Shown piece after piece: positions 5,368-26,288 of a stretch of 30,800 nucleotides of DNA. The position numbers and the translations under genes are program-made. Numbering within the stretch: position 1 is the stretch's first letter; each line of letters starts with the position of its first letter. The notes below the pieces were generated by a model. It did no database searches. It had not been told where the DNA came from and was given only the letters and a program-made list of their open reading frames with translations. The DNA is taken from positions 1 to 30,800 of the forward strand of contig JARVGK010000038.1 of NCBI GenBank assembly GCA_029762535.1, written 5' to 3'. This DNA is from Thermoplasmatota archaeon (GTDB taxonomy: Archaea; Thermoplasmatota; Penumbrarchaeia; Penumbrarchaeales; Penumbrarchaeaceae).

Positions 5368-5452
5368 TTACAGAATCATTTAAACGGTTCGAGATCATCT
5401 ACTCTCCCGGATGGATCCCATTCTTTTCGTAACGAAGATCCTCGGATCCCCC
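5368..5452 (+). repeat. Direct repeat copy B (contains TTTAAA box and phosphatase start)
   Basis: Matches 3809-3893 at an offset of 1559 nt. Confidence 0.95.
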
Positions 5453-8502: not shown

Positions 8503-9900
8503 TCACGGAACCGGGGGGGACAGACGGATCCCATCTCCGGAGGAGAGGGATCGATCCTGTGCTCCCTCCGAGATCCTCCTGTGGAGGGATCTCAACGCAT
8601 CGACGAGATCGATCCTCTCCACTACAAGATAATAGGCGGTTCCCGTGCCTCCGGATCCCGACATCGATACGGGGATATCCCCCTCTATGAGATCGATAAG
8701 ACATGTTCCCAGCAGGGAGGGGTCTTCCTTCAGCCTCCCGCCCACGATCCCTATCATCGCCAGGTCCTCATCGATCCTTATTCTCCGGATCCCGGCCTCC
8801 TCCAGGGCGAGCATCGCCCTGGGACCTTCGCAGGGATCCAATACGATCCCCACCGAACCATCGGACGAAGAGACGGAATATGGGAATATCCCCCTTGATG
8901 AAAGCACACCGTACGCCGCGCACAGAATGGATGCCGCTTCCTTTCCGGCATCTATGACAATAAGCGACACTCCGTCCCTTGATGCGAGGCTCATTATATC
9001 ACATGGGCCATCCCTCGACCCGACGATCCGCGTCCCTCCGGAATGACCATCGGACATATTCAGGACGCGTATGGGGATCCCGCTGCCTACAAGCGGGGAG
9101 AAGGTCCTGGGATGCAGGACCTTAGCGCCAAAATGCGAAAGCTCGATCCCCTCCTCGAAGGTGATCTCGTCCAACATGTAAGCATCGGGGACGATCGTCG
9201 GATCAGCGGACATGAACCCCCTGACGTCCTTGTAGAGGACCAGCTCCGATGCCTGGACGGAACGGGCTATGACCGCGGCGAGGTAGTCCGAACCGTTCCT
9301 GCCGAATGTCGCGGTCCTCCCGTCATCTAGAACGCCGTAGAACCCAGTTATCACGGGTACTTTCCCTTCCTCCATGGCGGGAATTACCTTTTTCATAAGG
9401 TTTCGTCCTGTCCGCTCCAGGTCCGCCTCGGCGTTTCCTAGCTCCCCCACCGCCGCGATCCCCGCTTCCTCCGAGCTCATCGGGACGGAAACGATGCCCA
9501 TGCGGTTCAGGTATAGGCAAACGAGGCCCACGGAAAGCCTCTCCCCGTATGTGATCGCGTGCTCACGCACCCACAGCGGAACGGCCTCGTCGTCCTCGTC
9601 CAGAAGCCTCCTCAACCTGCCCATCTCCCGCTCCAGCATGCCCTCGAATGCCTCCCTGTCGGAGGGCTCGGTAAGAAGTTCGGAGGCCAAAATGCTGTGC
9701 CTCATCCGAAAATCCGATATGATGGACCTGGACCTCTCCTCCAGATAGGACTTGAGGAGGTCCGTGGAATCCTTGATCGCCGAAAGCACCACCGCTTTCT
9801 TACCTGGGACAAGGGACAGTATCTCCCCGATCCTCCTTATGCCCTCGGGATCCGACATGCAGGACCCTCCGAATTTCAGGACCCTGATACCGTCATTCAT
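8503..9900 (-). CDS. lysC: Aspartate kinase
   Basis: VLKFGGS, GERLS, VPVITGF, TFGRNGSD, KDVRGFMSADP, GAKVLHPRT, ACT-like C-terminus. ATG 9900 overlaps the asd stop. Confidence 0.93.
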   Translation of the reverse strand: MNDGIRVLKFGGSCMSDPEGIRRIGEILSLVPGKKAVVLSAIKDSTDLLKSYLEERSRSIISDFRMRHSILASELLTEPSDREAFEGMLEREMGRLRRLLDEDDEAVPLWVREHAITYGERLSVGLVCLYLNRMGIVSVPMSSEEAGIAAVGELGNAEADLERTGRNLMKKVIPAMEEGKVPVITGFYGVLDDGRTATFGRNGSDYLAAVIARSVQASELVLYKDVRGFMSADPTIVPDAYMLDEITFEEGIELSHFGAKVLHPRTFSPLVGSGIPIRVLNMSDGHSGGTRIVGSRDGPCDIMSLASRDGVSLIVIDAGKEAASILCAAYGVLSSRGIFPYSVSSSDGSVGIVLDPCEGPRAMLALEEAGIRRIRIDEDLAMIGIVGGRLKEDPSLLGTCLIDLIEGDIPVSMSGSGGTGTAYYLVVERIDLVDALRSLHRRISEGAQDRSLSSGDGIRLSPPVP

Positions 9901-10934
9901 CGGATGATACCCTCCTTGAGGCACTGTTCGGCGATGAGAACTGCGTTCCCTGCCCCGCCCCTTATCGTGTTGTTGACCAGGGCGAACGCCCTTAGCATGC
10001 CTTCATCGACCCTGACCCTTCCCACTGAGACCGACATCCCGAGGGGACCCCCTGCGAATGAATCCAGATCCGGCCGGGGCCTGTCATTCTCCTTCCTCAG
10101 CACCAGGGGCCTCTTCGGAGCGGAAGGCAACCCCTCAAGCCCTGTGAACGATCCCATTCTGCGCTTCACCTCCTCAATATCCACACGATCCTTCAAGGAG
10201 GCGGAGAAGGATATAAGGTGGCCGTCCCTGACCCCCACCCTGACGCAGTTGGGAACTATCCTGATCGAAGACCCGACGATCATGCCATCATCGAGCCTCC
10301 CGAGTATCTTGACCGGCTCCTCGATGAGCTTCTCCTCCTCACCGCTGATGTATGGAAGCACCGTTCCAAGCGCTTCCAGGGAGGGAACGCCCGGGTAACC
10401 TGCCCCCGATATCGCCTGATAAGATGAGACGTGAACTGGGCCTTCGAGAAGGTCAGCTATGGGCGCGAGCGCCATGACGAGACCCGTTGTGGTGCAGTTG
10501 GGGTTGGTCGCCAATATTCCTTCTTCCCTGTCGAGAAGCATGGACAGATGCCCCCCATTGACCTCGGGTATGACCAGAGGTACATCCGGATCCATCCTGT
10601 GGAAGCTTGAATTGGATATAACGTGTATGCCAGAATCGGAAAGCTTCCTCTCGATCGAGGCGGCCGCCTCCGAGGGTAGGGCACTGAAAACCATATCGAC
10701 TCCGGACCTCCTCACGCCGGAGAAGGCCCCTTCCGTCATGACGATGTCGGAGGCGGCTCCGGGAACGTCGGGGCCTATCATCCATCTCACCGCCTCCGAA
10801 TAGGGCCTGCCGACACCTTCCCCTGATGAGAAAAGTGCCCCGAGCTCGAACCAGGGATGACCCGAGAGCATCTCAACGAACCTCTGTCCGATTATCCCCC
10901 TGGCCCCCAGAACCCCGCAGCGGACGCGATCCAT
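9897..10934 (-). CDS. asd: Aspartate-semialdehyde dehydrogenase (archaeal type)
   Basis: GARGIIGQ, DVPLVIPEVN, NPNCTT, QAISGAG, RVGVRDGH, NTIRGGAG; AGGTGA SD site. Confidence 0.95.
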   Translation of the reverse strand: MDRVRCGVLGARGIIGQRFVEMLSGHPWFELGALFSSGEGVGRPYSEAVRWMIGPDVPGAASDIVMTEGAFSGVRRSGVDMVFSALPSEAAASIERKLSDSGIHVISNSSFHRMDPDVPLVIPEVNGGHLSMLLDREEGILATNPNCTTTGLVMALAPIADLLEGPVHVSSYQAISGAGYPGVPSLEALGTVLPYISGEEEKLIEEPVKILGRLDDGMIVGSSIRIVPNCVRVGVRDGHLISFSASLKDRVDIEEVKRRMGSFTGLEGLPSAPKRPLVLRKENDRPRPDLDSFAGGPLGMSVSVGRVRVDEGMLRAFALVNNTIRGGAGNAVLIAEQCLKEGIIR

Positions 10935-10940
10935 ATATGA

Positions 10941-12854
10941 TCACCTACTATTTCCTACACCGGACGCTTTCGCCTTGCGGGGGGCCTTTGCCTCATCCTT
11001 CAATGAGATGTGCCCAATGGACCTGCCACCCCAGCTGACAGCTATCATATCGACCATCAACACCATGCCGGATACCGCGACAAATCCCGGTATTATGTCG
11101 GGTAGCCTGCGGTTCACAGGCGGTGTCAGCCCGGGGATCAGCTCAATTCCCTGGGCGGAACTGAGGGTATCCCTATCGTAGTTGATGAACACCAGAACGG
11201 GGGAGTCGCTCTTGACCCTCATCAACGATCCCCGGGTCATGTTTTCCCTGGAGAGGAAGATGCTGTCCCTTAAGCTCCTGTCAACGGCGATCCTGGGGAC
11301 GGAATCCAGCATGAAACGGTTCTGAGGGTCTCTCAGCGTCCATTCCGGGGGCTGCATGTAATTCGTATCGGAGAGGACCATGTTCATGTAGTAGTAGGAA
11401 TCCTCGGAGAACTCTATGGTCACGGTCTCGTAGGCCTTCATCTGTTTCTTGTAAGGCATGAGTAGAGCGGAGAAGTTCACCTGGACATCGTTGTCATCGC
11501 TGCCGAGGTTCACCACCGTCACATAGGCACGGCTGTAGAGCGGGACCTGGAAATCCGTATCGGCCGGGTATGGGACGAGGCCGTGGGAGTAGAACGTCGT
11601 GACCTTGCGGTTCTTCATCAGGTACTCCTCCCCGGCGATCCTGTTCGCGTAATCCTCATCCAGGTACCACTGGTTGTTGGCGAAGGTATAGACGAAGACG
11701 GGCCTGTTCGATCTGAGGGTTGCCCATTCGAAGGACGAATAACCTCTGAGCTTGTACATCACCTTGAAATCGAAGGTCCTGAACTCGCCCTTCTTGAGCG
11801 TCCCCTTGAAGGATCCCTGATTCCCGTTGGGGTCCTTGAGGTCGATGGTGGCCCCATCCGGCGCATGTACCAATATCTGGCCGAAGGTGGGGAAATGGAA
11901 GTCCCTGCTGTCCTTTCCGAACACCTGGACGAAGTTCTGCCTCGACTGCAGCCCGGCGACTATGGATACGGGCTTGTCCGCGCTTATCAGAACGTGATCG
12001 TCGTCGAAACCCAACTGCTGATATATGGGGTTCCTGCAGTAGGACCAGCCCTCGAACCTGTCAAGCTTCACGGTGAACTCGTCGTTTCGGTCGGAGAAGT
12101 CCCATATCCTCACGGTCGTATGCGCCTCGAGGGCGCTTATCCAGCAATCTCGCGTTATCCTGGTGAAGAGTTTGGAGGTGTAGGCCGAGTATACTCCGTC
12201 CCAGTAGTAGTTGATCATGTCCTGGCCATCAGAGTCCTTTGTTCCGGTCGGATACAGCTTGTGATGCATCACCGTTATCGGGTTGTCGGATGTGATCCGC
12301 ACCGTCCCCGTAAGTATCCTGAGATCGTCCTTGACCAGCCAGCTGTTCAAGGGGATCTCCTGGGATTCGTAAACCCCCATCTTCAGGAACCTGCTGTCCG
12401 ATATCGGGGGTTCAAGATGCTCCAGCCAGTGCATCGAGTGGCCCTCTCTGAGACTCCATGTCCGGCCGGCCGGATCGAAGGTCGCCCCGTCTATCACGGT
12501 CGCGTTGAGCCATTGTATCCTAACATTGGCCCCGTTCTCGTAGGAGAATACCTGTATGCTCGAAAGGTTGGACATTATGTAGTTCCCGGAGCGGTACTGA
12601 TAACCGTACCAGACGGATGGCCTCTCGAGCGATTTGGTCACTGGCGGGGGTACGTAGAAGACGAACTCGGTATTTGTGAAGGCATCGATGTCGGTCGTGC
12701 CGAGGTCGGTGTGCTCGCTCTTCTCCCTGGCCACCCGGATGTTGTCGCTTATCGCCCGGGATATAGGTGAGTCGTAATGCAGTATCTCGGACATCGGCAG
12801 GAACAGCAGTCCTATCACGCAGGCGACCAGCATCACTCCTCTCAACACGGCCAT
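10941..12854 (-). CDS. Double membrane-anchored surface protein B with IgGFc-binding-like beta repeats (637 aa)
   Basis: Hydrophobic N-terminus from ATG 12854, C-terminal TM plus basic tail; repeats ITSDNPITV, ISADKPVSI, LRSNRPVFV, VKSDSPVLV. The family call is by motif resemblance only. Confidence 0.65.
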   Translation of the reverse strand: MAVLRGVMLVACVIGLLFLPMSEILHYDSPISRAISDNIRVAREKSEHTDLGTTDIDAFTNTEFVFYVPPPVTKSLERPSVWYGYQYRSGNYIMSNLSSIQVFSYENGANVRIQWLNATVIDGATFDPAGRTWSLREGHSMHWLEHLEPPISDSRFLKMGVYESQEIPLNSWLVKDDLRILTGTVRITSDNPITVMHHKLYPTGTKDSDGQDMINYYWDGVYSAYTSKLFTRITRDCWISALEAHTTVRIWDFSDRNDEFTVKLDRFEGWSYCRNPIYQQLGFDDDHVLISADKPVSIVAGLQSRQNFVQVFGKDSRDFHFPTFGQILVHAPDGATIDLKDPNGNQGSFKGTLKKGEFRTFDFKVMYKLRGYSSFEWATLRSNRPVFVYTFANNQWYLDEDYANRIAGEEYLMKNRKVTTFYSHGLVPYPADTDFQVPLYSRAYVTVVNLGSDDNDVQVNFSALLMPYKKQMKAYETVTIEFSEDSYYYMNMVLSDTNYMQPPEWTLRDPQNRFMLDSVPRIAVDRSLRDSIFLSRENMTRGSLMRVKSDSPVLVFINYDRDTLSSAQGIELIPGLTPPVNRRLPDIIPGFVAVSGMVLMVDMIAVSWGGRSIGHISLKDEAKAPRKAKASGVGNSR

Positions 12855-12871
12855 GGTCCATCCCCGTCCTT

Positions 12872-15016
12872 TCACTTTCCCTTGATCAACGCGCCCAGCT
12901 TGTCCTTTCCAGTGTAGGTCAAAGTGCCTACGAGTCCCTTCGACCCGTTCGCCACCAGGACCGCCTCCACTCCGAATATCAGGGTCAGGGCCAGTGGAAG
13001 GGGCCAGAAGTTCTCCCCGCCCTGCGACCTCTGTATGGTCGGCTTGACGGATAGGACTATGTCCATGTCCTGGGGCTCGCATGAGTAGTCTCTTGCGTAT
13101 CGGACCATGAGCATGACCTTCTTGTCCGCGTTCACATCCATCATCTGGATCACCGACTCCAGCTCGTCCTGGTTGTCCGGCTCGGTGTCATCGACCTCGT
13201 CGCCGTTGTAATCCTCGTTCGAGTCCACCACGATCCTGTATACATCATACGCATCGAGAGTGGCCTCGGAGGGGCGGTTGTTCAGCCATGTCCCCGTCCA
13301 TCCGACCTTCGTGTCATCCTCCAGGGCTATGATGTATACGAGGCAGCGGTGATGTATGGCGAGGTTCCATTTCTCCATGGCCGCGGAGTAGTCGAAGCCG
13401 CGCTTGAACGTGGAGATCTGCGTCTCGTCGAAGGCGTTGTCGTCGTTCGCCATCCAGAACTCCACCCTGATCGGCCAGTCGCTGATTATCTTGCACCAGG
13501 TGATCTCGGCGATGTAATTGTTGGAGAACGGCCCCGGCGCCATGCTCTTGTAGGTGTACTGCTCACCTGGCTTGATCACGATCGAGACGTCCTCGGTCGC
13601 TTTGTCCTGGAACTCCAGGGTCACGTGGGCCTCGCGCTCGAGCCCCGTTATGGTCAAGGCGGATGAGAGCGGGACCAGGTACCTCGATCCCAGGAATCCG
13701 TATGCCTGTGTGTGGAAGTTGTTGTCCCAGATCCCGCCGTAGATGGTCACGGGCTTCTGGGACCGGACTATCACCCAATCGGCCTCGAAATTGCCCGAAT
13801 CCACGGCCTTCTTTATAAGATCTGATCCCATGAACTCCTTGACCTCTTCCGGGTTCGACCAGTTGAGCTTGTTCCTGTGGGTAGCGTAGTCCAATTCGTT
13901 GTTGTCCCCCGCATCGTCGCCACCGCACCACGTGTCCACCACGAAGTTCGAGGCCCAGACGAAGTTCTCCCAGGCGTTCAGGGTGATCGTCTGGGTGTCG
14001 TCCCCGTCGGAGACGTCGATTATCTCGATCTTGTTGTTATCATCGTAGCTCGCTATCATGAGGTCCCTGTGGACGAACCCGAAGAACTCGTCCCCGTAGA
14101 AGGACCATACGGCATCATCGCTCATTCCGTTCGCGAACCATTCCGTGTTCACACCGTGGGAGACCTCATCGTCCCCATCGTTGTAGCCTCCGTTACCGTC
14201 CATGTCGCAGTCGTCCCAGAGGTCTGGGATCCCGTTCTCGTTCTTGTCTATGTACCCGTCCGTGACTGTCATCTTGGTGACCGTGACCCGGCCCGTGGAT
14301 TCTACTTTTAGTACGCCGTCCCACAGCCACCAGTCCATCGTCGTGTAGAATATCTTGCCCTCGTACTTCCCCAGCGTTCCCTCCCAGAGGACATGGTCCT
14401 TGACCTTCAGGAGGTCGGGGGAGTTCAAGGGCGCCCTTGCAGGGTCCATCAGATCGATCTTATCAGGCTGGTTCTTGTCGGGCTTGCCGTTGTTGTTCAT
14501 GTCCGCGTTGAAAACCGAGCCGTCCTTCCAGCGTATGGTGTTCTCGGGATAGTCCTTCTTGAAATTGTCGGTGAACAGATGTCCGTTGAGGACGGTCACC
14601 TTGATCCTGTTGTCCTTGGCATAGGATCCGATCGAGATCGCTCCTTCATCGCTAATGTAGGTGTCGCCGTAGAACGAGATGCCGCGCCTGGTCTCGCCGT
14701 CGGTCTGGCCGTTGTTGAAATCGTCGTTGTGACCGTTCTCGATCCCCCAGGGGCAGTTCTGCTCGGTATCTGCCTGATCGTATAGCGGGTCTATCGGGCT
14801 CCAGTAGAATATGAACTCGTCGTTGACGAAGGGCGTATATGCGCTGGTCTTCGTGCTTCCCGTTATCTCGTCTATCAGGCGGGCGTCGTGCACCATCACG
14901 TGCGATGACGGCAGCAGAAGGACCCCGAAGAGCATGAACATGATAGAGAAAGCAAGTCCGTAGCTCTTGAGAAACGTGAGCAGTTTCAACTTCGTATCCT
15001 CAGGTATCTTCCCCAT
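12872..15016 (-). CDS. Acidic double membrane-anchored surface protein A, paralogue of B, with Ca-binding-like loops (714 aa)
   Basis: GGTGA SD before ATG 15016; N- and C-terminal TM; VRSQKPVTIYGG, ISDWPIRV, VNADKKVML; DMNNNGKPD, DKNENGIPD, DCDMDGNG. Confidence 0.65.
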   Translation of the reverse strand: MGKIPEDTKLKLLTFLKSYGLAFSIMFMLFGVLLLPSSHVMVHDARLIDEITGSTKTSAYTPFVNDEFIFYWSPIDPLYDQADTEQNCPWGIENGHNDDFNNGQTDGETRRGISFYGDTYISDEGAISIGSYAKDNRIKVTVLNGHLFTDNFKKDYPENTIRWKDGSVFNADMNNNGKPDKNQPDKIDLMDPARAPLNSPDLLKVKDHVLWEGTLGKYEGKIFYTTMDWWLWDGVLKVESTGRVTVTKMTVTDGYIDKNENGIPDLWDDCDMDGNGGYNDGDDEVSHGVNTEWFANGMSDDAVWSFYGDEFFGFVHRDLMIASYDDNNKIEIIDVSDGDDTQTITLNAWENFVWASNFVVDTWCGGDDAGDNNELDYATHRNKLNWSNPEEVKEFMGSDLIKKAVDSGNFEADWVIVRSQKPVTIYGGIWDNNFHTQAYGFLGSRYLVPLSSALTITGLEREAHVTLEFQDKATEDVSIVIKPGEQYTYKSMAPGPFSNNYIAEITWCKIISDWPIRVEFWMANDDNAFDETQISTFKRGFDYSAAMEKWNLAIHHRCLVYIIALEDDTKVGWTGTWLNNRPSEATLDAYDVYRIVVDSNEDYNGDEVDDTEPDNQDELESVIQMMDVNADKKVMLMVRYARDYSCEPQDMDIVLSVKPTIQRSQGGENFWPLPLALTLIFGVEAVLVANGSKGLVGTLTYTGKDKLGALIKGK

Positions 15017-15341
15017 GTTTATCACCTTGGCCTTATCTAGTAAAGGACGGAAATACGATCATAGCCATCTGTTAGTAAATAAAGGTATGGCGGGAGATCC
15101 CCGATTATTGAAATGAGAATATGTACAACATTGTAATTTTATGTAGCCATGAATTATAGGTTCGAACACAGGATAATTGTAAAGAAAAACGGGATAATTG
15201 AACGTCAGATATCCTTTGAAAAACTGGAACCATGCGAAAATAATGATGAGCAAACGCATAAATAGCATAAAAAACAGTTGATTTTTCTGCGAGAATACGG
15301 GACCATCCCGTACGAATGTCGGGATCCACTGAGGTGAGAAG
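15017..15341. promoter_or_regulatory. AT-rich divergent promoter region with tandem repeat
   Basis: AC(A/G)GGATAATTG at 15168-15179 and 15189-15200 (21-bp period); TACAA-CA-TTGTA palindrome at 15124-15135. Confidence 0.6.
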
Positions 15342-15563
15342 TTGGCCGAGAGTTTGATATCCTGGTTGATAAAGAAGCCGTTAGTGATCGATATCGTGAG
15401 CAGGATCGACCGCTTTGAGCTGACTCCTGAATTGATGAACAGGATCAGGATAGTTCTCCTTCTGAGCGCTATACTGGCATTCTTCATAGCGTTCCAGATG
15501 GGAGATGACTGGTACGTGAGGGAGTATGCGGATTACGACTGGGCGAGGCACATCGGTTATTAG
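15342..15563 (+). CDS. Small single-TM protein, CD1871A-like but lacking CxxC
   Basis: GAGGTGA SD before TTG; TM helix followed by GDDWYVREYADYDWARHIGY; 5 nt upstream of the 4Fe-4S gene. Confidence 0.65.
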   Translation: MAESLISWLIKKPLVIDIVSRIDRFELTPELMNRIRIVLLLSAILAFFIAFQMGDDWYVREYADYDWARHIGY

Positions 15564-15568
15564 GAGAC

Positions 15569-16495
15569 ATGCACATGGCGAGCGATATCGGGATAATAAT
15601 GGCCCTATACACACTCATAATAACGGGTGTGATCGTCGTCATTAGGTTCGGCGGCGTCGCTTTCAGGCTGCCGATGCAGATCGGCGCGTTCGCCTTTCAC
15701 CGTCTTGGGATATTCAGAAAATTGCCGGGGGCGTGGCACGCTCCGATACCCAGGACCAGCGGTATCACGTGCACGCTCAACTGCCAGGCCTGCGAGCTCG
15801 CGTGGCTCGGATGTCCCATCGGCATGCTCCAGAGGTATGTGATCGACACGAGGCTGCCAATATACGTTTATGGGGTCCTGGTCGCGGCCGGATTGGCCCT
15901 CGGCCGGGCGATATGCGGCTGGCTCTGTCCCTTCGGCCTCATCATGGACCTTCTGAACAAGGTAAGCATTCACAAGTTCAATCCGCCCGAGTGGATGAGG
16001 GCCATCAAGTATTTCTACGTCATCGGGGCGGTAGTTCTGGCCGCTCTGACCGGGATGATATTCTATTGCAGGTATCTGTGTTTCGGGGCGCTTCTCGGGG
16101 TCATACCATACTGGCTCACATGGCATACGGTCAGCGCCACTTGGCTCTTTTTCCACTTGGGCGTGTTCGCGGCCTACGTCGCATTCGGATATCTTACGAA
16201 CGGCAGGGCGTGGTGCAGGTACTTCTGCCCCCTCGGGGCCATACTGTCCCTGTTGAACCCCATCTCGCTCATAAGAAGGAAGTTCGACTGGAAATGGTGT
16301 ACGAAGTGCGGCAGGTGCAAGACCGTCTGCCCGATGGGACTTGACCCCACCAAGGACGATCTCAAGAGCAAGATCGACTGCATCAAATGCGGACGCTGCG
16401 TCACCGAGTGCAAATCCAAGTCCCTCTCCATAGGGACGGTATTCTCGGGAAGCAAGGAAACACACAAGAAGGGTGCCGAGATCCTCACCGATTGA
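15569..16495 (+). CDS. Membrane-bound 4Fe-4S polyferredoxin (NapH/MauN-like)
   Basis: CTLNCQAC...GCPIG, CGWLCPFG, CRYLC, WCRYFCPLG, CTKCGRCKTVCP, CIKCGRCVTEC; several TM helices. Confidence 0.9.
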   Translation: MHMASDIGIIMALYTLIITGVIVVIRFGGVAFRLPMQIGAFAFHRLGIFRKLPGAWHAPIPRTSGITCTLNCQACELAWLGCPIGMLQRYVIDTRLPIYVYGVLVAAGLALGRAICGWLCPFGLIMDLLNKVSIHKFNPPEWMRAIKYFYVIGAVVLAALTGMIFYCRYLCFGALLGVIPYWLTWHTVSATWLFFHLGVFAAYVAFGYLTNGRAWCRYFCPLGAILSLLNPISLIRRKFDWKWCTKCGRCKTVCPMGLDPTKDDLKSKIDCIKCGRCVTECKSKSLSIGTVFSGSKETHKKGAEILTD

Positions 16496-16501
16496 GGTCG
16501 T

Positions 16502-17371: not shown

Positions 17372-18231
17372 GGGGGCCAGCCTCCTCCGAGCGTTTCGAT
17401 CAGCGCTCTTTTCATAACCTCAACGGGGGCTTTGGACCCCGTCCAGATCTCGTAGGACCGGGCACCCTGCCAAAGGAGCATGTCATGACCCTGAACGGTC
17501 CTTGCTCCGATATCCTTTGCCCTATCGAGAAAACGGGTATGTTTTGGATTGTACACGACATCCATCACGGTCATGCTCTCGTTCAGCAGTTCGGGGTCAA
17601 GGGGAACCTCATCAGGGAATCCGGCCATGCCAAGAGGGGTGCAGTTTATGACAAGATCAAGGGCCTTCATATCCTCCTCCCCTTCCTCGAGGACCCTGGC
17701 ATCGGTCATTTTAGATAGATGGGCCGCAAGCTCCCTGGCCCTAGGGGTCGACCTGTTCGTTATGAGGATGTCCATTCCGCACTCGGCAAGGCAGTATCCT
17801 ATGGCCCTTGACGCGTGCCCCGCTCCTATCAACAGTGCCTTTTTACCCTCGAACGGGATGAACCCGTTCGCTCGCAGGGCGTCCATGGCCCCCCTGCCGT
17901 CGGTGTTGTGGCCGATGAGATCGCCCCTGCGGTTCTCTATGACGTTGACGGCGCCTATGCCCTGGGCATGATCGTCGATCCCATCAAGATGTGCCATGAC
18001 GGCGCTCTTGTGGGGGATCGTCACGTTGATCCCGGATATGCCCATCTCCCTTGCCCCCCGGAGGAAGGCCTCCAGACCCCGCCCGTCTATCCTGAACGCC
18101 AGGTACACTGCGTTCGTTCCGTCGTTCAGGAATGCCGCGTTGTGCATGGACGGGGACATGGAATGCCCAACGGGATCGCCTATCAGGCAGTAAAGGCGGG
18201 TCCCCGCATCGATCCTATGGGTCGTAACCAT
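17368..18231 (-). CDS. aroE: Shikimate dehydrogenase
   Basis: GDPVGHSMSP, NVTIPHK, GAVN, GHNTD, GAG, NRS, DVVYNP, MLLWQG. Confidence 0.94.
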   Translation of the reverse strand: MVTTHRIDAGTRLYCLIGDPVGHSMSPSMHNAAFLNDGTNAVYLAFRIDGRGLEAFLRGAREMGISGINVTIPHKSAVMAHLDGIDDHAQGIGAVNVIENRRGDLIGHNTDGRGAMDALRANGFIPFEGKKALLIGAGHASRAIGYCLAECGMDILITNRSTPRARELAAHLSKMTDARVLEEGEEDMKALDLVINCTPLGMAGFPDEVPLDPELLNESMTVMDVVYNPKHTRFLDRAKDIGARTVQGHDMLLWQGARSYEIWTGSKAPVEVMKRALIETLGGGWPP

Positions 18232-18919
18232 CCCTCCGCAGTATTGACCAGAAACACTTCAACGTCCTTATGTCCAACTGATCGACGGCCGATGTATCGT
18301 CCATGGGGCAATAAACGATCTCGGACCCCGATAGTGGAGCCAGTATCCTCGTTATATGGCCGAAAGGTCCCATGCCCATGATCGAGCATCTCATACCCTC
18401 ATCATGAGCGGTACAGGCCAGCTCAAGTATGGCACGGGAGTCCTCGGCGGAGCGGGTCATGAATGCAGCCTTGATGATGTTCGCCCCCGCCCTGGCGCAG
18501 CGGTCCACGATCGCCCTCATATGATCGAAGGGAGGTGTGGAGGAATGGTCGTGATGGGAGATGATCACCTCAACCCCCGAGGACCTCGCCCTTTCCACGA
18601 GGGGATCCCTGAATCGTTGGGACATGCCCAATTCCACATCGATGAGGTCCGGCCCGCTGTCGATGATGCGCATCAGCGCTTCCGAGGCCGCCTCATCCCC
18701 GCCTTTGAAATGACCACCGTCCTGCCCGGACCTGAGCGTTATCACGCTTCGCATCCCGATCCTTCCCAACCCTTTCTGATGGGACGGGCTCCATTCGATG
18801 CGGTCCTGATGGTCCAGCCTGATCTCGACCATATCGGCCCCTAATGATCCGCATGCCGGGGCCAGTTCAAGCGCCGCCTGGGCGCTCCGTTGTCGAAGCG
18901 TCACGCAGATCGATGTCAT
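18215..18919 (-). CDS. aroD: Type I 3-dehydroquinate dehydratase
   Basis: VEIRLD, TLRS..DGG, IDVEL, IISHHD, IIK, MGMG..G..TR. Confidence 0.88.
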   Translation of the reverse strand: MTSICVTLRQRSAQAALELAPACGSLGADMVEIRLDHQDRIEWSPSHQKGLGRIGMRSVITLRSGQDGGHFKGGDEAASEALMRIIDSGPDLIDVELGMSQRFRDPLVERARSSGVEVIISHHDHSSTPPFDHMRAIVDRCARAGANIIKAAFMTRSAEDSRAILELACTAHDEGMRCSIMGMGPFGHITRILAPLSGSEIVYCPMDDTSAVDQLDIRTLKCFWSILRRDGYDP

Positions 18920-18931
18920 ATATCCTCCTCA

Positions 18932-19966
18932 TCACAGCTCCTTTATGCTCTCCTTGACCTTCGTTCCGAAATGCCTTCCGCCCTCGGAGACCATCAATGA
19001 TACCTCATCACCTTTTTTCAGCTCTACAAGGGAAACGGCCTTTCCCCCGGAGACGAGCCTCACGGTCTCCGCGTTCTGAAGTATGATATTGTAGATATCA
19101 CCGCCGTGCTCGGCCGAAACCAGGACCAGCGGCCTCTTCTCTATCTTCAACCTGCCGATGATCACGCTCCTCGCGTTGCCCTTGGAGTCCACGGCGAGGA
19201 GCTCATCCCCTGTCCTGAGATCGGATAGATAAGGCGTTCTGTCCCCGGCGGCTAGGGCATAGGATTGGACCGATCCAGCGTTCACCCTGAACGGCCTTGC
19301 GCTCGCGTACTCCGAATCTATGGACTCCGAGTGGACCAGGAACAGGCCGGAGGACCGCGAGCCGATCAGCATCCCCTCTCCGGTCCTGAGCATGGAGCAT
19401 GTATCTATGCAAACCCGATCCCCTTGGCCCAGCGACCTGATCTCCACAACGCGGGCCTGGACCAGGTCCACACGTTCTGCCCTCAATTCGTCCAGGATAC
19501 GCCTGGAACGTATCACGTCCTCTGGGGAGGCGGGTTCAAGCAGTATCCCGTCGACCCCCGCCTCCAGCGCACCGAAGAACAGGGGGATCTCCTCCGGATC
19601 GCTGACCTGTGCCACCAGATCGGTCCCGCTGCCCTGGAAGGCGGCTATCAGGTTCTCCATCGGGATCACCTTCCAGTCATCGACGCTGACGACGACCATA
19701 TCCGCCTTCCCCGCGAGGCGGGAGGCCTCGGTCTCGTCGTCCTTGCCGGATATCCGCAGCATCATTCCTTCCCTGCCATCGACAGATATTGACCCATCCT
19801 TTACGGATATGATCTGGAACCGGCCTATCCTGAGAAATGATTCGATGTCCTCTTCCCTCACGGCTATTGACAGGAGATCGCTCTCCAGGGCCGCGGTGAG
19901 TATGGCCTTTCTCTCATCTCTGCCCTGCGCAGTGTCAGCTCTGACCCAGACGAACTTGTCCTTCAA
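18932..19966 (-). CDS. aroB': 3-dehydroquinate synthase type II (archaeal)
   Basis: DWKVIPMENLIA, GDRVCIDTC, GEGMLIGS, RPFRVNAG, YLSDL, ILQNAETVRL, GRHFG. Confidence 0.94.
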   Translation of the reverse strand: MKDKFVWVRADTAQGRDERKAILTAALESDLLSIAVREEDIESFLRIGRFQIISVKDGSISVDGREGMMLRISGKDDETEASRLAGKADMVVVSVDDWKVIPMENLIAAFQGSGTDLVAQVSDPEEIPLFFGALEAGVDGILLEPASPEDVIRSRRILDELRAERVDLVQARVVEIRSLGQGDRVCIDTCSMLRTGEGMLIGSRSSGLFLVHSESIDSEYASARPFRVNAGSVQSYALAAGDRTPYLSDLRTGDELLAVDSKGNARSVIIGRLKIEKRPLVLVSAEHGGDIYNIILQNAETVRLVSGGKAVSLVELKKGDEVSLMVSEGGRHFGTKVKESIKEL

Positions 19967-20766
19967 CCCTTACCCTCCAGTCCCTCGAGGGCCTCCTCCA
20001 CATCGTATCTATCGATCACGACCCTCCTTATGGCCCTGACCATCTTCGTGGGGTCGGGATGCTGGAAGACGTTCCTGCCAATGGATACGCCCTTCCCGCC
20101 CGCGGTCATGGCCTCCTTCACCATCTCCAGGACCTGGCGGTCGGTCTCCATCCTCGGGCCGCCGGCTATCAGGACCGGGACGGGGCACCCTCTTGTGACC
20201 TCCCGGAACGTATCGATGTCCCCGGGATAGTTCGTCTTGATGATATCGGCCCCGAGCTCCGCCCCGAGCCTAGCTATGTGCTTTATCGAATCGGGGTCCA
20301 GCTCGTCCTTGATGTTCTTGCCCCTGGTGTACATCATCGCCAGGAGCGGCACCTGCCATTCCCTGCAGGATCGGGACACCTCTCCTAGGTCGAAGAGCAT
20401 CTCCCTCTCCGTCTCCGCGCCCACGTTGATATGTACCGACACCGCGTCGGCTCCCAGCCTCAAGGCCTCCTCGACGGAGCTGACCAGTATCTTCGCGTTC
20501 GGATAGGGGCCGATATGGGTGCTGGCCGATATGTGAAGGATCAGCCCGATCTTCCCTCCGACATCTTTGAGGCCCTCGCCGACCAAGCCCTTGTGTATGC
20601 TCACGGAGGTGGCCCCTCCCGCGGCGACCTTGTTTATAGTGCTTCTTATGTCCATCAAACCCTTTATCGGCCCCACGGTCACGCCGTGGTCCATCGGCAC
20701 CAGTACGAACCTTCCCGTCCTCATGTGTCCGATGCGCCTCATCCTTATCTCGTGTCCGTTCGTCAT
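19963..20766 (-). CDS. aroA': 2-amino-3,7-dideoxy-D-threo-hept-6-ulosonate (ADH) synthase, DhnA-type aldolase
   Basis: PMDHG, HKG, GADAVSVHIN, MMYTRG, GADIIKTNY, IAGG, GRNVFQH; adjacent to DHQ synthase II. Confidence 0.9.
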   Translation of the reverse strand: MTNGHEIRMRRIGHMRTGRFVLVPMDHGVTVGPIKGLMDIRSTINKVAAGGATSVSIHKGLVGEGLKDVGGKIGLILHISASTHIGPYPNAKILVSSVEEALRLGADAVSVHINVGAETEREMLFDLGEVSRSCREWQVPLLAMMYTRGKNIKDELDPDSIKHIARLGAELGADIIKTNYPGDIDTFREVTRGCPVPVLIAGGPRMETDRQVLEMVKEAMTAGGKGVSIGRNVFQHPDPTKMVRAIRRVVIDRYDVEEALEGLEGKG

Positions 20767-20785
20767 CTCTCTCACGCTCCATACG

Positions 20786-21712
20786 TCATGTGACTCCAGC
20801 TATGAAGGTCAAGGCCAGCACGGCCGTCAGAGTAAGGAGGTATCCTATGTGCAGCTTTCTCGCCGAGGCTTTCGTGTACCTCCTGAATATGGATATGCAA
20901 AGGTAAAGACATATCGCCTCCCACGTGAGAACGAGCAGGAGGACCGCCGCCTGCACCACAAATTGCGTTTCGTGTATGAAGAAGTACGAATAGGCCCACA
21001 GCGAGATCCCGATGACCGAGAATACGAAAGAGGCCCCCGATGCTGCCTTGTTCCCCAGAAGGACCGAGGTCGTTATCTTCCCCGAATCCCTGTCGTTCTC
21101 CAGGTCCCTTAAGTCCTTCGCAAGCGTCTCCGCGATCCCGACGAACAACACCATCACGGCCAGGAAGTAGAGGCCGTTCAGTATGTTCTGATAGGGGATC
21201 GATTCGTACCTGACGAGATACGCAGATATCGTGAGATAGTACAGTATGGCGAAGAGGACCCAGAACAGCTGGGATACGAAGGGGCGCCCGTTCATCTTCA
21301 AGGGGGGCAGCGAATACTGATGGGCCAAAAGGACCAATGACAGGGTGAATATGAACACATAGATGTCGAGCATCAGGGCGAGGAGAAGGCCCAACGCGAA
21401 AAGGGAATATGCCTGTATCCTTGCCGATCTCATGCTGACGGTCCCCTTGCAGAGGGGGCGGTCCTTTCGCGAGCTCTCCGTGCTGATACGGTCGGATGCG
21501 ATGTCGCCAATATCGTTGAGGGTACATGCCCCGGCATCCGTCAGGAGGGAGGTCAATATGAACAGCAGGAAATGGACCCGGGGAAGATGCTGTGTCAATA
21601 CCGCGTAGCTTGCGAACCCTATGAATATATCGAACCAGATGAGCTGTATGGGGCGCATGAGTATGAAATGCCCCTTGATCCTCTCAAGGAGGCCGAAGCC
21701 GGATCCCGTCAA
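20786..21712 (-). CDS. UbiA-family membrane prenyltransferase
   Basis: N-terminal LMRP, NDIGDIASD..., RPL..G, second motif KDLRDLENDRDSGKITT; polytopic. Confidence 0.9.
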   Translation of the reverse strand: MTGSGFGLLERIKGHFILMRPIQLIWFDIFIGFASYAVLTQHLPRVHFLLFILTSLLTDAGACTLNDIGDIASDRISTESSRKDRPLCKGTVSMRSARIQAYSLFALGLLLALMLDIYVFIFTLSLVLLAHQYSLPPLKMNGRPFVSQLFWVLFAILYYLTISAYLVRYESIPYQNILNGLYFLAVMVLFVGIAETLAKDLRDLENDRDSGKITTSVLLGNKAASGASFVFSVIGISLWAYSYFFIHETQFVVQAAVLLLVLTWEAICLYLCISIFRRYTKASARKLHIGYLLTLTAVLALTFIAGVT

Positions 21713-21715
21713 CTC

Positions 21716-23032
21716 TCACGCCCCCTCTATGATCTCGCCTTTGCCGCTTATCTCGTCGACCACCCTCGATAGGGCCTTTCCCGGCCTGACTTCGCGGTAG
21801 TCATATAGCGTCCCGGGTTCAACGATGTCAACGGTCGAGGGCACGCCCAATTCCTTCTGGAAATTCCTGCGTATCCCTTCATTCAATTCGGCGGCCTTGC
21901 CCCTGTGCTCGATCTCTATGTGCAGGCCCTCGCTGCGGACGGTTATTCGATACCACGGGCCGTTGATATGGGACCTGTAGAGGATATCCTCGAGCTCTAT
22001 CGGGTAGATGTCCCTCCCATTTATCCTGATAAGGGTCCTCTTCCTGCCGAAGATCTCCATCGATGGAAGGGGAAGGCCGCATGGACAGGGATCGTCATGT
22101 AGGGCTATCACATCGCCCGTGACGTATCTGAGGATCGGCTGGGCCTCCCTCCACGTGGGGGTCACTATTGAATGCCCTTTCTCCCCCGGGTCCGCCTTCG
22201 TTCCATCCTCTCTGTAGACCTCGGTGTACATGGCGAACGAGGGCAGATGAAGGACGTTATTCCTGCAAGGGATCGCCACCCCGACCTCGTTCTGACCGAG
22301 CAGGGACAGCGCCCTGCAGCCATACAGCTTACCCAGGACCTTCGCCCTGGAGGAGGATAGTGGCTCAGCACCGGAGACGATCAATCGTATCCCAAGCGAT
22401 GTCGGGTCGATCCCCCTGTCCATGAGTATGTTGGCGTAGGAGAACGCGTCCGTTGCGACCGAGCCCAGTATGGTCGGTTTGAGCCTGAGCAGGGTATCGA
22501 CGACCTCCTCCGGAGGGTACATGTTGTTCCTCGTCCCCATGGGGATGATCGTCACCCCCCTTTTCTGGTTTATCATGTCCGCCATCCTCCCTGCGAGGGT
22601 CCTGGTGTACGGATAGCAGAGGGCGACGACGTCCTTAGGGGACATCATATCCTGGAAGACCGGGAGGCTCACGGCCATCCCGACGCTGCGCTCTATCTCG
22701 TCTCGGGTCACCCACAGCGGCACGTGGCCTCCCGTGGTCCCGGAGGTCTGTGAATAGATCATGCACTTCTCCCCCGGCCTGACGGCCAGGGTGTCGTAGG
22801 GTCCGGCCTCCACGAGCTCCTCCCTCGTTGTCGGGGGGACCATCTCGTTGAAATCGCTCAAGGTCTTGATCCTGTCCGGGACCACTCCGGCATCCTTGAG
22901 CTTCCTTGCATAGAACCTGCTCTTGTAGGAATATTTTATAGCCCGCTTCAGCCTCTTGAGGACCATCTTATCGCTGTTGGCGTACCTGAGAAGCCCCGGA
23001 TGCTTCTTCAGAACATACGCTTTTAGGTCCAC
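21716..23032 (-). CDS. PaaK / coenzyme F390 synthetase-like adenylate-forming enzyme
   Basis: QTSGTTG P-loop, SGAEP, LGQNE, PILRYVTGD, CPCG, FGR, IYPIELE. Confidence 0.88.
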   Translation of the reverse strand: MDLKAYVLKKHPGLLRYANSDKMVLKRLKRAIKYSYKSRFYARKLKDAGVVPDRIKTLSDFNEMVPPTTREELVEAGPYDTLAVRPGEKCMIYSQTSGTTGGHVPLWVTRDEIERSVGMAVSLPVFQDMMSPKDVVALCYPYTRTLAGRMADMINQKRGVTIIPMGTRNNMYPPEEVVDTLLRLKPTILGSVATDAFSYANILMDRGIDPTSLGIRLIVSGAEPLSSSRAKVLGKLYGCRALSLLGQNEVGVAIPCRNNVLHLPSFAMYTEVYREDGTKADPGEKGHSIVTPTWREAQPILRYVTGDVIALHDDPCPCGLPLPSMEIFGRKRTLIRINGRDIYPIELEDILYRSHINGPWYRITVRSEGLHIEIEHRGKAAELNEGIRRNFQKELGVPSTVDIVEPGTLYDYREVRPGKALSRVVDEISGKGEIIEGA

Positions 23033-23050
23033 TCTGTCACTTCCTCTACA

Positions 23051-24115
23051 TCAAGTCTTGAAGTCGTATCTCAACCGCTCCTGCCTTGGAACGAGCGAAT
23101 CGTGGTCCAGGATCCCCGATATCATCAGATGATCGACCGTGACGATGGCGCTCACCGCCTCTGCGACCACGAGGACCCTGGGGGTGTAGTTCGCATCGAA
23201 CCTGCCCTCCGTCGATATGGTGGCGTTCTCCATTTTTGTCAGATCAACGGTGTCCTGAAAGGACAGGACCGAGGGAGTGGGCTTCACAATTGCCCTGAAG
23301 ACGACCGGCGGCCCGCAGGTGATGCCCCCGAGAACGCCCCCGGCCCTGTTCGAGGCGGGGGCGACGATGCCGTTCTTGACCCTGATGGGGTCGTTGAACT
23401 CGGTCGCTTTCATCTTCGCGGCCTCCCTGCTGGAACCGAGCTCGAAGGATTTGATACCGGGAATGCTCAATATCCCATGCCCCAGGTCCGCATGGAAGCG
23501 GTTGAAGGCAGGTGCTCCGAGCCCCGGAGGCAGTCCTTCTATCCGGACCTCGATGATGCCTCCGGTGGCATCCTCCTCCTTCGCGGACGTCTCCGCCAGC
23601 CTCTCGATCTCGGATCGGAGGTTGGAGTCAGTGATCGGTCTACCACCAAGCTCCACGATCGAGCTTCCTACCCTCACGTTCCTTATGGAGCAGAGGCTTC
23701 TGGCCACACCCCCGGCGGCTATGATCGGTGCCCAGGTCCTGCCGCTGGCCCTGGACCCGCCCCTCCAGTCGACATGGCCGTATTTCATCCTGTACGCCAG
23801 GTCCGCATGTCCGGGCCTGGGCCTTGACATTATCTTGAGGTACTTGTCGCTCTCGACGTTCGAGTTCCTTATAATTATCGATATCGGCGTGCCGATGGTC
23901 TCACCCTGGAACACGCCGCTCAATATCTGGAATCTGTTCTCCTCCACCCGCCTCGTAAGAACGGGATAGGGAACGTCACGATCCAGTTCCTCCCTGATGA
24001 TGTCGGGCCCCATCTTCAAACCGGCAGGGCAGCCGTCTATGACGCAGCCCATGCTGTCGCCGTGGGATTCACCCCAGGTCGTCACCCTGAACATGTGGCC
24101 GATCGTATTTCCCAC
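23051..24115 (-). CDS. aroC: Chorismate synthase family protein (divergent motifs)
   Basis: TTWGESHG, GTPI, RPGHAD, RASGRTW, SIPGIK, GGVLGGIT, KPTPS, GRFD..YTPR. Confidence 0.88.
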   Translation of the reverse strand: MGNTIGHMFRVTTWGESHGDSMGCVIDGCPAGLKMGPDIIREELDRDVPYPVLTRRVEENRFQILSGVFQGETIGTPISIIIRNSNVESDKYLKIMSRPRPGHADLAYRMKYGHVDWRGGSRASGRTWAPIIAAGGVARSLCSIRNVRVGSSIVELGGRPITDSNLRSEIERLAETSAKEEDATGGIIEVRIEGLPPGLGAPAFNRFHADLGHGILSIPGIKSFELGSSREAAKMKATEFNDPIRVKNGIVAPASNRAGGVLGGITCGPPVVFRAIVKPTPSVLSFQDTVDLTKMENATISTEGRFDANYTPRVLVVAEAVSAIVTVDHLMISGILDHDSLVPRQERLRYDFKT

Positions 24116-24124
24116 CAGGCGAGA

Positions 24125-24625
24125 TCACCCCTGGGGATTGGGTGCGAAGATCAGCCTCTTCTCCTTTGAGGACCCGGGCTTCTCTACGACGAGGAACTGG
24201 CCCTGGAAAGCCAGCTCCAGAAGTATGACGAGGATCGGGGAGACGATCGCGGTCGCGAAGAAACCGATGCTCATCTGCCATACTGTGGATATGCCCATGA
24301 ACAGGGCGATCGCTATGATCAGGACGAATATCGGAACGTAGATGACCAGTACCGTTCGGCCTTCGAGGACCACGCCTTTCTTGGGGTTCCCTTTTGCCCT
24401 GAACATGTTGAGAAGCGTCAGCCCCGTCATCGTCAGCAAACCAAGGACCACCCCGAGGACGATGAAGACTATCTTGTAATCGTAATAGTTGGGGAACTCC
24501 CTCGCGTAGTTCCTCAGCATCAGAAGCGAGACAATGGTGTAGAGCAGCGGCAGGACGCAGCCCTTGGCAATGCGCTTCCAGTACCTGTAGCGATCGCCTT
24601 CGATCTCCGGGTTGTCCGAGGTCAT
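24125..24625 (-). CDS. Hypothetical 4-TM membrane protein, first gene of the aro/ubiA run
   Basis: Four hydrophobic stretches; 9 nt from aroC; TATA-like AAAACCTTAATTA on the - strand at about 24722-24734. Confidence 0.7.
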   Translation of the reverse strand: MTSDNPEIEGDRYRYWKRIAKGCVLPLLYTIVSLLMLRNYAREFPNYYDYKIVFIVLGVVLGLLTMTGLTLLNMFRAKGNPKKGVVLEGRTVLVIYVPIFVLIIAIALFMGISTVWQMSIGFFATAIVSPILVILLELAFQGQFLVVEKPGSSKEKRLIFAPNPQG

Positions 24626-24783
24626 TTCCGTCCCATCCCATGAACGTTCAAAAGGGCCGGATCCCAACTTGGATGTATACACCTGACCCGTCCCTTTTTT
24701 AGAACAATTGGGACATGCAGGTAATTAAGGTTTTGACCTGGGTTATCTCCTGGCGAACTGAAGGCGGATGGGGACTCGAAGGG

Positions 24784-25870: not shown

Positions 25871-25943
25871 GGGCCGATGGTCTAGGGGTTATGACGTCGC
25901 GCTTACAACGCGGAGGTCCCCGGTTCAAATCCGGGTCGGCCCA
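25871..25943 (+). tRNA. tRNA-Val(TAC), no intron, CCA not encoded
   Basis: Acceptor GGGCCGA/TCGGCCC plus A; anticodon arm TCGCG-CTTACAA-CGCGG; T arm CCCGG-TTCAAAT-CCGGG; T-run downstream; AAAAGGTTTTAT upstream. Confidence 0.96.
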
Positions 25944-26069: not shown

Positions 26070-26194
26070 CAAATCCGGGTCGGCCCACTCGATTTTCATT
26101 AATGATTATTTGCAGAGTGGGACGACCCGAATAATTAATGAGAGTACATTGAGAGTGAAAATCCGAAGGATTTTTACGGATCCGGGTCGGCCCA
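26070..26194. repeat. Copies of the tRNA 3' end (att-like): two direct, one inverted
   Basis: CAAATCCGGGTCGGCCCA at 26070-26087 equals 25926-25943; ATCCGGGTCGGCCCA at 26180-26194; an inverted copy at 26115-26132 matches 26073-26090 at 16 of 18. Confidence 0.85.
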
Positions 26195-26288
26195 CTTCTC
26201 CTCATTATTCATTCGTCGGATCCTCCATCGTCCATGAACAAATAAATCATGGAGGAACCATTATACGACGATCATTCGGGGCAGATAC

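Follow-up and report, generated by a model that had tools for sequence, protein, structure and literature searches.

The canonical shikimate pathway of archaea, as in Methanocaldococcus jannaschii, comprises ADH synthase (ADHS), DHQ synthase II (DHQS-II), dehydroquinase, shikimate dehydrogenase, a GHMP-type kinase and an enzyme of the chorismate-synthase family. To our knowledge, chorismate synthase has been regarded as a one-substrate enzyme that always acts after EPSP synthase. Here, we analysed a 30,800-nt stretch of DNA (hereafter the window; positions 1–30,800 of contig JARVGK010000038.1, assembly GCA_029762535.1) from an uncultured sediment archaeon of the Thermoplasmatota (Penumbrarchaeaceae), in which the same set of enzymes is encoded in one operon together with a PaaK-like adenylate-forming ligase and a UbiA-superfamily prenyltransferase. 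Unlike the canonical pathway, no EPSP synthase and no consumer of chorismate was found here, the chorismate-synthase homologue (aroC) belongs to a separate clade, and lysC and asd are attached to the operon. On balance we think it probable that this stretch encodes a biosynthetic and membrane module complete in itself, in which an EPSP-independent branch of the shikimate pathway leads to a prenylated, adenylate-activated ring compound, anchored in the membrane as a lipid.

Family searches over all six frames of the genome assembly (2.96 Mb, 93% complete, with the window as contig C34) did not find EPSP synthase (PF00275), a chorismate-binding enzyme of the TrpE/PabB/MenF type (PF00425), prephenate dehydratase (PF00800), prephenate dehydrogenase (PF02153), MqnA (PF02621) or a chorismate mutase of the CM_2 type (PF01817; the AroH type was not sought). 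The same searches matched 13–14 of 14 control genomes, or 4 of 14 in the case of MqnA. An initial annotation of this DNA had seen neither EPSP synthase nor genes for Trp, Phe and Tyr in the window, and this holds for the whole 93%-complete genome; the ordinary aromatic amino acid pathway that the operon might simply have fed, which that annotation had raised as the alternative, was not found. As entry points into quinone synthesis, the MenF-type family and MqnA are thus both missing from the search results, UbiC (PF04345) was not searched, and one gene of the UbiD family is present outside the window.

The same absences recur in other carriers of the PaaK-like gene. EPSP synthase was absent from 14 of the 16 others, including the closed chromosomes CP070739.1, CP070751.1 and CP070760.1 (Heimdall), prephenate dehydratase and MqnA were found in none of the 16, and a chorismate-binding enzyme was found in one. 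Controls were aroC-positive, PaaK-negative Thermoplasmatota from another class of the phylum, taken as the 19 genomes common to the aroC-positive set and the EPSP-synthase search, and 18 of them carry EPSP synthase. The remaining control, G186 (97% complete), has chorismate synthase (E 3e-110) but neither a PaaK-like gene nor, at E ≤ 1e-20, EPSP synthase; a gap in the assembly may explain this, or the genome may be a further exception. Within the class to which the window belongs, each aroC-positive genome carries either EPSP synthase or the PaaK-like gene.

The product of the cluster-linked aroC retains the catalytic and FMN motifs of chorismate synthase (GESHG at residue 15, RPGHAD at 100, KPTPS at 278 and GRFD at 304). 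In an alignment of 16 cluster-linked with 16 canonical Thermoplasmatota sequences, the changes F14W, R47D, D60N, G121S, T128W and H306F separate the two groups, the canonical residue being present in 15–16 of the 16 canonical sequences and in 0–2 of the 16 cluster-linked ones; P308A is a further group-specific change. R47D sits in the L-x-x-R-[KR]-P-G motif, T128W lies two residues past the Arg of S-x-R, and D60N replaces the Asp of E-x-D. By our own count R47 presumably corresponds to R39 of the S. pneumoniae enzyme. The Arg of S-x-R is substrate-binding in chorismate synthase, and the Arg, Thr and Asp replaced here are invariant near the substrate site of canonical enzymes, where the changed residues would presumably meet groups of the ligand. 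In a maximum-likelihood tree, the cluster-linked sequences of Thermoplasmatota and one Promethearchaeota sequence form a clade (100/99 support) on a stem of 0.7 changes per site, the Hod-/Hermodarchaeota pair forms a long branch of its own, and canonical sequences fall outside the cluster-linked clade. Judged on sequence, from the separate clade and the altered conserved residues, the cluster-linked aroC is a distinct paralogue.

One genome (G004, also listed as G043; CP070629.1) holds both systems. It carries this cluster, here lacking aroD and aroE, as well as a complete bacterial-type shikimate operon (locus L030, C1:412000-430000) with DAHP synthase, classical AroB, a fused AroD–AroE, EPSP synthase and chorismate synthase. 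The canonical chorismate synthase of this operon scores 447 bits, and the cluster aroC is 40% identical to it. Since the two copies are kept together, they are not redundant, which argues for two functions. None of the chorismate users that we looked for (prephenate dehydratase, chorismate-binding enzyme and MqnA) was found in this genome. A B12-binding radical SAM gene follows its bacterial-type shikimate operon.

In the window, the cluster spans 8503–24682 and consists of lysC, asd, surfA, surfB, the gene of a NapH-like polyferredoxin and a nine-gene run on the − strand. Genes were called from Pfam and NCBIfam profile scans, and transmembrane (TM) helices were predicted:

8503–9924, − strand: lysC, aspartate kinase; PF00696 (AA_kinase), 133 bits
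9897–10934, − strand: asd, aspartate-semialdehyde dehydrogenase; PF01118 and PF02774
10941–12857, − strand: surfA, bitopic surface protein; N- and C-terminal TM helices, no Pfam family
12872–15025, − strand: surfB, bitopic all-beta surface protein; N- and C-terminal TM helices, no Pfam family
15569–16495, + strand: NapH/MauN-like membrane polyferredoxin; PF12801, PF13187
16502–17371, − strand: aroK, archaeal GHMP-type shikimate kinase; TIGR01920, 228 bits (cut-off 127)
17368–18231, − strand: aroE, shikimate dehydrogenase; NF001319, 274 bits (cut-off 252)
18215–18919, − strand: aroD, type I 3-dehydroquinate dehydratase; PF01487, 137 bits; TIGR01093, 133 bits (cut-off 139)
18932–19966, − strand: aroB', DHQ synthase II; PF01959, 401 bits
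19963–20775, − strand: aroA', ADH synthase; TIGR01949, 342 bits (cut-off 299)
20786–21712, − strand: UbiA-superfamily prenyltransferase; PF01040, 92 bits (cut-off 34)
21716–23032, − strand: PaaK-like ligase, adenylate-forming; ANL motifs
23051–24115, − strand: aroC, chorismate-synthase paralogue; PF01264, 340 bits
24125–24682, − strand: 4-TM protein; no Pfam or NCBIfam match

Each gene named in the initial annotation was found by Pfam and NCBIfam at the place given for it. The span given there, 8503–24625, has the right start, but its end lies at 24682. The nine genes were described as a tight − strand run with gaps of about 20 nt or less or overlaps, and the measured distances agree, being 9, 18, 3, 10, −4, 12, −17 and −4 nt from the 4-TM gene to aroK along the − strand (18 nt down to −17 nt). 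The surface proteins and the polyferredoxin do lie between the runs as described, with the correction that the polyferredoxin gene is on the + strand; it is convergent with aroK, with 6 nt between them, and divergent from the surface-protein operon. Beyond the 543-nt spacer follows this second − strand operon, with surfB, surfA and then asd and lysC. The surfA open frame extends over 10941–13082, and its true start is probably M76, at 12857.

Two further candidates in this region were set aside. An open reading frame of 142 codons (15059–15487) in the spacer (15026–15568) matches no family and has a low-complexity, unusual sequence; it is probably not a gene. A fusion of aroC and the PaaK-like gene, suggested by long open frames, was rejected, as the two genes do not share a reading frame and aroC ends at a stop codon of its own. 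Elsewhere in the window, direct repeats of 85 nt (96% identical; 3809–3893 and 5368–5452, 1559 nt apart) flank an open reading frame at 4000–5304. On the other side of the cluster, a Kelch-repeat beta-propeller protein with hydrophobic segments at the N- and C-terminus is encoded at 26289–27599 (+), and adjoins a gene for a 500-aa DsbD-like membrane protein at 27612–29114 (−).

Precursor supply appears to be private to the cluster. lysC, asd and all aro genes are single-copy in the genome (tblastn; one match for lysC), and lysC adjoins the cluster in most Thermoplasmatota loci. Neither DapA nor homoserine dehydrogenase was found genome-wide in the 93%-complete assembly. Hence, no user of aspartate semialdehyde other than ADH synthase can be recognised, and the idea of the initial annotation that the cluster brings its own precursor supply is strengthened. 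The DHQS-II scores slightly under the cut-off of its NCBIfam equivalog models (350 vs 392 bits). By their profile matches, the ADHS/DHQS-II pair is of the kind that fits archaeal shikimate entry, and is told apart from the GriI/GriH (BagB/BagC) type.

With one genome scanned per species, the PaaK-like gene was found in 16 species, comprising 13 Thermoplasmatota and three Asgard archaea (one each of Hod-, Hermod- and Heimdallarchaeota), and metagenome contigs add carriers labelled 'Promethearchaeota'. The conserved set comprises asd, lysC, the napH-like gene, surfB, surfA, the 4-TM gene, aroC, the PaaK-like gene, the UbiA gene, ADHS, DHQS-II, aroD, aroE and aroK, and in the 13 Thermoplasmatota species genomes it is adjacent in at least four different gene orders. 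Loci of Hod- and Hermodarchaeota contain DHQS-II-(aroD)-ADHS-UbiA and PaaK-aroC-aroK-aroE, split by genes for bitopic and 7–8-TM proteins. Thus, the co-conservation on which the initial annotation had staked its proposal was borne out: the genes stay adjacent through rearrangements in 13 Thermoplasmatota, and the core, made up of the PaaK-like gene, aroC, the UbiA gene and the aro genes, recurs in Asgard archaea.

Among 401 genomes of the phylum that are at least 80% complete, the PaaK-like gene is present in nine, surfB in exactly the same nine, and an orthologue of the UbiA gene in eight of those nine and in no other. The spread is patchy: in three families, the carriers are 4 of 14, 1 of 2 and 3 of 3 genomes. 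A tRNA-Val gene (anticodon TAC) lies at 25871–25943, and direct copies of its 3' end at 26073–26090 and 26180–26197, on the side away from the cluster. A genomic island inserted at this tRNA was rejected, as the copies of the 3' end occur only downstream of the tRNA and none lies across the cluster. No integrase was found in the window.

The UbiA-superfamily enzyme has eight predicted TM helices and the two Asp-rich motifs (NDIGDIASD at residue 66 and DLRDLEND at residue 200), which are kept in 68 of 70 and 70 of 70 family members, respectively. Its scores are below every NCBIfam cut-off, and are best on models of the DGGGP synthase (DGGGPS) and chlorophyll-synthase type (84, 70, 67 and 57 bits). 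DGGGP synthase equivalogs give 67–70 bits against cut-offs of 296–353 (PRK12883, 70 bits), the 4-hydroxybenzoate model TIGR01474 gives 31 against 275 bits, and MenA models give 22–31 against 264–555 bits. The closest solved structures are M. jannaschii DGGGPS (6m31, 35 bits) and AfUbiA (33 bits). The family amounts to 74 clusters in a search of 5.8 billion proteins, and at E ≤ 1e-30 no orthologue was found in 393 of the 401 phylum genomes. Because the family is tiny and present only in cluster-bearing genomes, the window UbiA is not the housekeeping DGGGP synthase. Four other UbiA paralogues exist in the genome, among which the one on contig C25 is a better DGGGPS candidate; together with the low equivalog scores, this disposes of the possibility, named in the initial annotation, that the enzyme is an ordinary DGGGP synthase. 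Another of these paralogues immediately precedes a gene for archaeosortase A (TIGR04125, 89 bits; locus L005, G000:C7:36091-39858).

The PaaK-like ligase carries the ANL motifs TSGTTG (residue 96), GQNE (246), TGD (305), GRK (329) and PGK (417), which are invariant in 16 orthologues. In the same 5.8 billion proteins its group is sharply bounded, with about 97 clusters at E ≤ 1e-82 and the next matches at 1e-32. It fails the phenylacetate-CoA ligase equivalogs (TIGR02155, 122 vs 646 bits; NF041878, 136 vs 700 bits), and its neighbours are aroC and the UbiA gene, with no paa operon context. The closest solved structures are AjiA1 (115 bits) and a chain deposited as 'PaaK-like ligase' (109 bits), which we take to be the benzoxazole enzyme NatL2. 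AjiA1, NatL2, BagE/FevW and PaaK activate aromatic acids as adenylates, with a hydroxyl or CoA as acceptor of the acyl group; the products of AjiA1 and NatL2 are esters.

At the membrane, surfA and surfB share 18% identity over 422 residues (E 1e-7) as distant paralogues, and the surfB family comprises 57 clusters in 5.8 billion proteins. The AlphaFold2 model of surfB is all-beta (pLDDT 65, pTM 0.70), and its comparison with the PDB by Foldseek gave generic beta-sandwich matches only, at TM ≤ 0.13, and no clue to the fold. Residues 643–651 of surfB form an invariant Y-x-x-D-x-S-C-E-P with the sole invariant Cys, about 25 residues before the C-terminal TM helix; this motif is absent from surfA. 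Residues 260–290 of surfB contain Asp-rich loops resembling calcium sites. In Thermoplasmatota, the gene immediately upstream of the aroC paralogue is in every case that of the 4-TM protein, and the best ESM Atlas matches of this protein reach 0.86, to unnamed clusters. Pfam at E ≤ 0.5 gave nothing credible for the 4-TM protein, surfA, surfB or the Asgard membrane proteins.

The polyferredoxin has four TM helices, two 4Fe-4S motifs and 18 Cys, and scores 86 bits on TIGR02163 (cut-off 213); no nap, nos or mau partner genes lie within the window. Among the 13 Thermoplasmatota species-genome loci (L034–L046), 11 have its gene next to the cluster, 10 of these 11 with at least 10 kb of flank; in L045 and L046, no polyferredoxin gene was seen within the flanking DNA examined. 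The Hod- and Hermodarchaeota loci encode two paralogous bitopic proteins of about 220 aa and two 7–8-TM proteins, without Pfam family (L047:4654-9578, L048:6573-9885). Profile comparison of surfB with this bitopic pair indicated no homology (probability 0.2%), and the likeness is in architecture only. One of these two loci also carries an IS605 OrfB.

According to our model, LysC and Asd would convert aspartate to aspartate semialdehyde, ADH synthase and DHQS-II would convert this to 3-dehydroquinate, and AroD, AroE and the GHMP shikimate kinase would lead on to shikimate 3-phosphate. This part of the route follows from family assignments on equivalog models and is to that extent predicted. 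No enolpyruvyl group would then be added, because EPSP synthase is missing. The aroC paralogue, with a putatively remodelled substrate pocket, would carry out an FMN-dependent elimination of the 3-phosphate, UbiA would prenylate at the membrane, and the PaaK-like enzyme would adenylate the ring carboxylate; two orders of these three putative steps fit the data. In one option (a), elimination from shikimate 3-phosphate itself would give 3,4-dihydroxycyclohexa-1,5-dienecarboxylate, which would be aromatised and then C-prenylated as in ubiquinone synthesis. In the other (b), instead of enolpyruvyl transfer, a hydroxyl of shikimate 3-phosphate would be alkylated by UbiA, which would give the paralogue a lipid-linked analogue of EPSP to act on. 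We slightly favour option (b), as UbiA leans to O-prenylating relatives, and the paralogue has two bulky Trp and has lost a conserved Arg, although all of these features fit option (a) too.

The predicted product would be a polyprenyl-bearing acid of cyclohexadiene or benzoate type with its carboxyl activated for transfer, thus a lipid rather than an amino acid precursor. In Thermoplasmatota it would be used together with the 4-TM protein, the NapH-like iron-sulfur membrane protein and the two paralogous surface proteins. This co-occurrence suggests membrane or extracellular redox chemistry, or modification of surface proteins, and a redox-active or surface-associated lipid is the most plausible use of the product. 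We infer that the product is aromatic, prenylated on its ring and an electron carrier. Gene content, co-occurrence, the missing pathways and the paralogue status of aroC are observed here, whereas the order of the three steps, the prenylation site, the group to which the activated carboxyl is transferred and the role of the compound in the cell are inferred. More tentatively, and at less than even chance in our judgement, the chorismate-synthase paralogue may have been recruited to remove phosphate from shikimate 3-phosphate itself, or from a 5-O-polyprenyl shikimate 3-phosphate that UbiA makes in place of EPSP, and may give a new class of membrane-anchored ring lipid, possibly a redox carrier, in sediment Thermoplasmatota and Asgard archaea, served by dedicated surface proteins.

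Several observations weigh against an EPSP-independent lipid pathway. The evidence for it comes from comparative genomics of metagenome-assembled genomes. Related genomes share gene order by descent, hence the independent observations are fewer than the genomes. The aroC paralogue passes NCBIfam chorismate-synthase equivalog cut-offs (NF003793, 329 vs 321 bits; TIGR00033, 303 vs 212 bits), and R47D stands beside a conserved Arg/Lys at position 46, so that the arginine may merely have moved one place. The characterised relatives nearest to UbiA are DGGGP synthases, and therefore the acceptor need not be a ring. Moreover, two PaaK-bearing genomes (G050 and the Heimdall genome G052) have no UbiA orthologue. 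Finally, the chromosome CP070739.1 (G042) has a TrpE/PabB-like component I with a glutamine amidotransferase (L053:7923-10009) and no EPSP synthase, which hints that something chorismate-like may be made there; prephenate dehydratase was not found in this closed chromosome.

The last observation, together with the retention of aroK and aroC, both passing equivalog cut-offs, would fit a bypass of EPSP synthase. Here a residual shikimate pathway would provide a soluble cofactor with its ring, for instance the arylamine of methanopterin or folate, by making true chorismate or, directly, 4-hydroxybenzoate or 4-aminobenzoate, with an unrecognised enzyme, perhaps the PaaK-like one, in place of EPSP synthase, and with UbiA and the surface genes as neighbours that have a separate job. 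Work on Methanococcus also left archaea with an unresolved route to the 4-aminobenzoate moiety. We nevertheless regard such a bypass as unlikely. No chorismate user was found in the window genome or in 15 of the 16 others, and a core cofactor pathway would not be expected to be as rare as this cluster (9 of 401 genomes). UbiA and surfB share the phyletic pattern of the cluster (UbiA in eight of nine), and the genome CP070629.1 has a canonical aroA–aroC pair besides it. An adenylate-forming enzyme also would seem to have no plausible chemistry for enolpyruvyl transfer. About equally improbable is a pathway that ends on the surface proteins themselves, in which surfA and surfB, or the Asgard bitopic pair, would carry the prenylated activated acid in covalent linkage as an anchor or prosthetic group, with the NapH-like protein in maturation. 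MauN-type proteins serve the maturation of periplasmic quinoproteins, the polyferredoxin matches the NapH/MauN family, the phyletic pattern of surfB equals that of the PaaK-like gene, and two paralogous proteins anchored at both ends, unrelated in sequence, stand beside the biosynthetic genes in both phyla. For the nearest solved relatives of the ligase, moreover, the acyl acceptor is presumably a hydroxyl and not CoA. Yet the ligase is predicted to be cytoplasmic and surfA and surfB lie mostly outside the cell, no acceptor motif is common to both proteins (the invariant SCEP Cys is in surfB only), and the surfB model gave no clue from its fold.

The remaining two explanations we consider very improbable. 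A product of 3-amino-4-hydroxybenzoate type would be made by a GriI/GriH-like aldolase and DHQS-II with a BagE/FevW-like PaaK, and its ring would come from aspartate semialdehyde and a C3/C4 unit, not from shikimate. Models of all three types do match, but far under their cut-offs: the aldolase reaches 237 bits on BagB/FevI (cut-off 500), DHQS-II 179 bits on BagC/FevH (AHBA type; cut-off 750) and the ligase 125 bits on BagE/FevW (cut-off 800). The aldolase also passes the ADH-synthase equivalog cut-off, and the co-conserved aroD, aroE, aroK and aroC paralogue would have no role, leaving this route scarcely any weight. Only marginally better is the case for an island of unrelated genes, moved or inherited as a block without shared function. 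The patchy distribution in three families speaks for it, as do gene order shared among relatives by descent and the GC-content of the cluster, which is higher than that of the genome (0.574 vs 0.531). Against this, the genes are found together in at least four arrangements and in two phyla, are tightly coupled up to overlapping stop and start codons, and follow a complete metabolic logic, with a precursor supply that has no other consumer and with aroK and aroC without aroA; the excess in GC-content is only slight, and no att-like repeat brackets the cluster. The prenylated, shikimate-derived lipid thus remains the reading that we prefer.

If it is correct, a conserved aroC clade without EPSP synthase or use of chorismate would imply a new reaction or substrate for this family and a new exit from the shikimate pathway. 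A prenylated lipid derived from shikimate would add a compound class to archaeal membranes; it could supply widespread anaerobic archaea of sediments, Asgard lineages among them, with their missing membrane electron carrier or surface lipid, and might serve as a lipid biomarker. As a pathway to a shikimate-derived prenylated lipid it would be of a known sort, and the enzymology of the aroC paralogue could be new in kind. In the full-text literature searched, with subscription journals mostly outside it, neither this gene set nor a chorismate synthase that acts in the absence of EPSP synthase was found to be described, which is not proof of novelty.

Among known systems, the cyclohexanecarboxyl-CoA pathway of ansatrienin and omega-cyclohexyl fatty acids resembles the proposed route in starting from shikimate and not chorismate, in an initial 1,4-elimination on the ring and in activation of the carboxyl by a ligase. 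We know of no chorismate-synthase homologue or prenyltransferase in that pathway, and its reductases and dehydratases are absent from the cluster. The aryl-acid adenylating PaaK-like enzymes, namely AjiA1, the 'PaaK-like ligase' chain and BagE/FevW of bagremycin, belong to the same ANL subfamily as the cluster ligase (about 110–125 bits), and serve pathways whose ring likewise comes from shikimate or aspartate semialdehyde chemistry. In contrast to these systems, the ligase of the cluster is far below the family cut-offs, is archaeal, and is paired with an aroC paralogue and a prenyltransferase, and the cluster holds neither a second aromatic partner nor an amidohydrolase. DGGGP synthase, the closest characterised sequence relative of UbiA, has both Asp-rich motifs in common with it; however, DGGGP synthase is universal in archaea, whereas the window UbiA is restricted to cluster-bearing genomes. 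Ubiquinone and menaquinone synthesis likewise brings together a ring acid derived from shikimate and a UbiA-superfamily prenyltransferase, and a further likeness is the NapH-like protein encoded beside the cluster, which resembles a quinol dehydrogenase. Compared with these pathways, the UbiA described here is nearer to models of the DGGGPS/ChlG type, and the cluster has no ring hydroxylases or methyltransferases, but has an adenylating enzyme.

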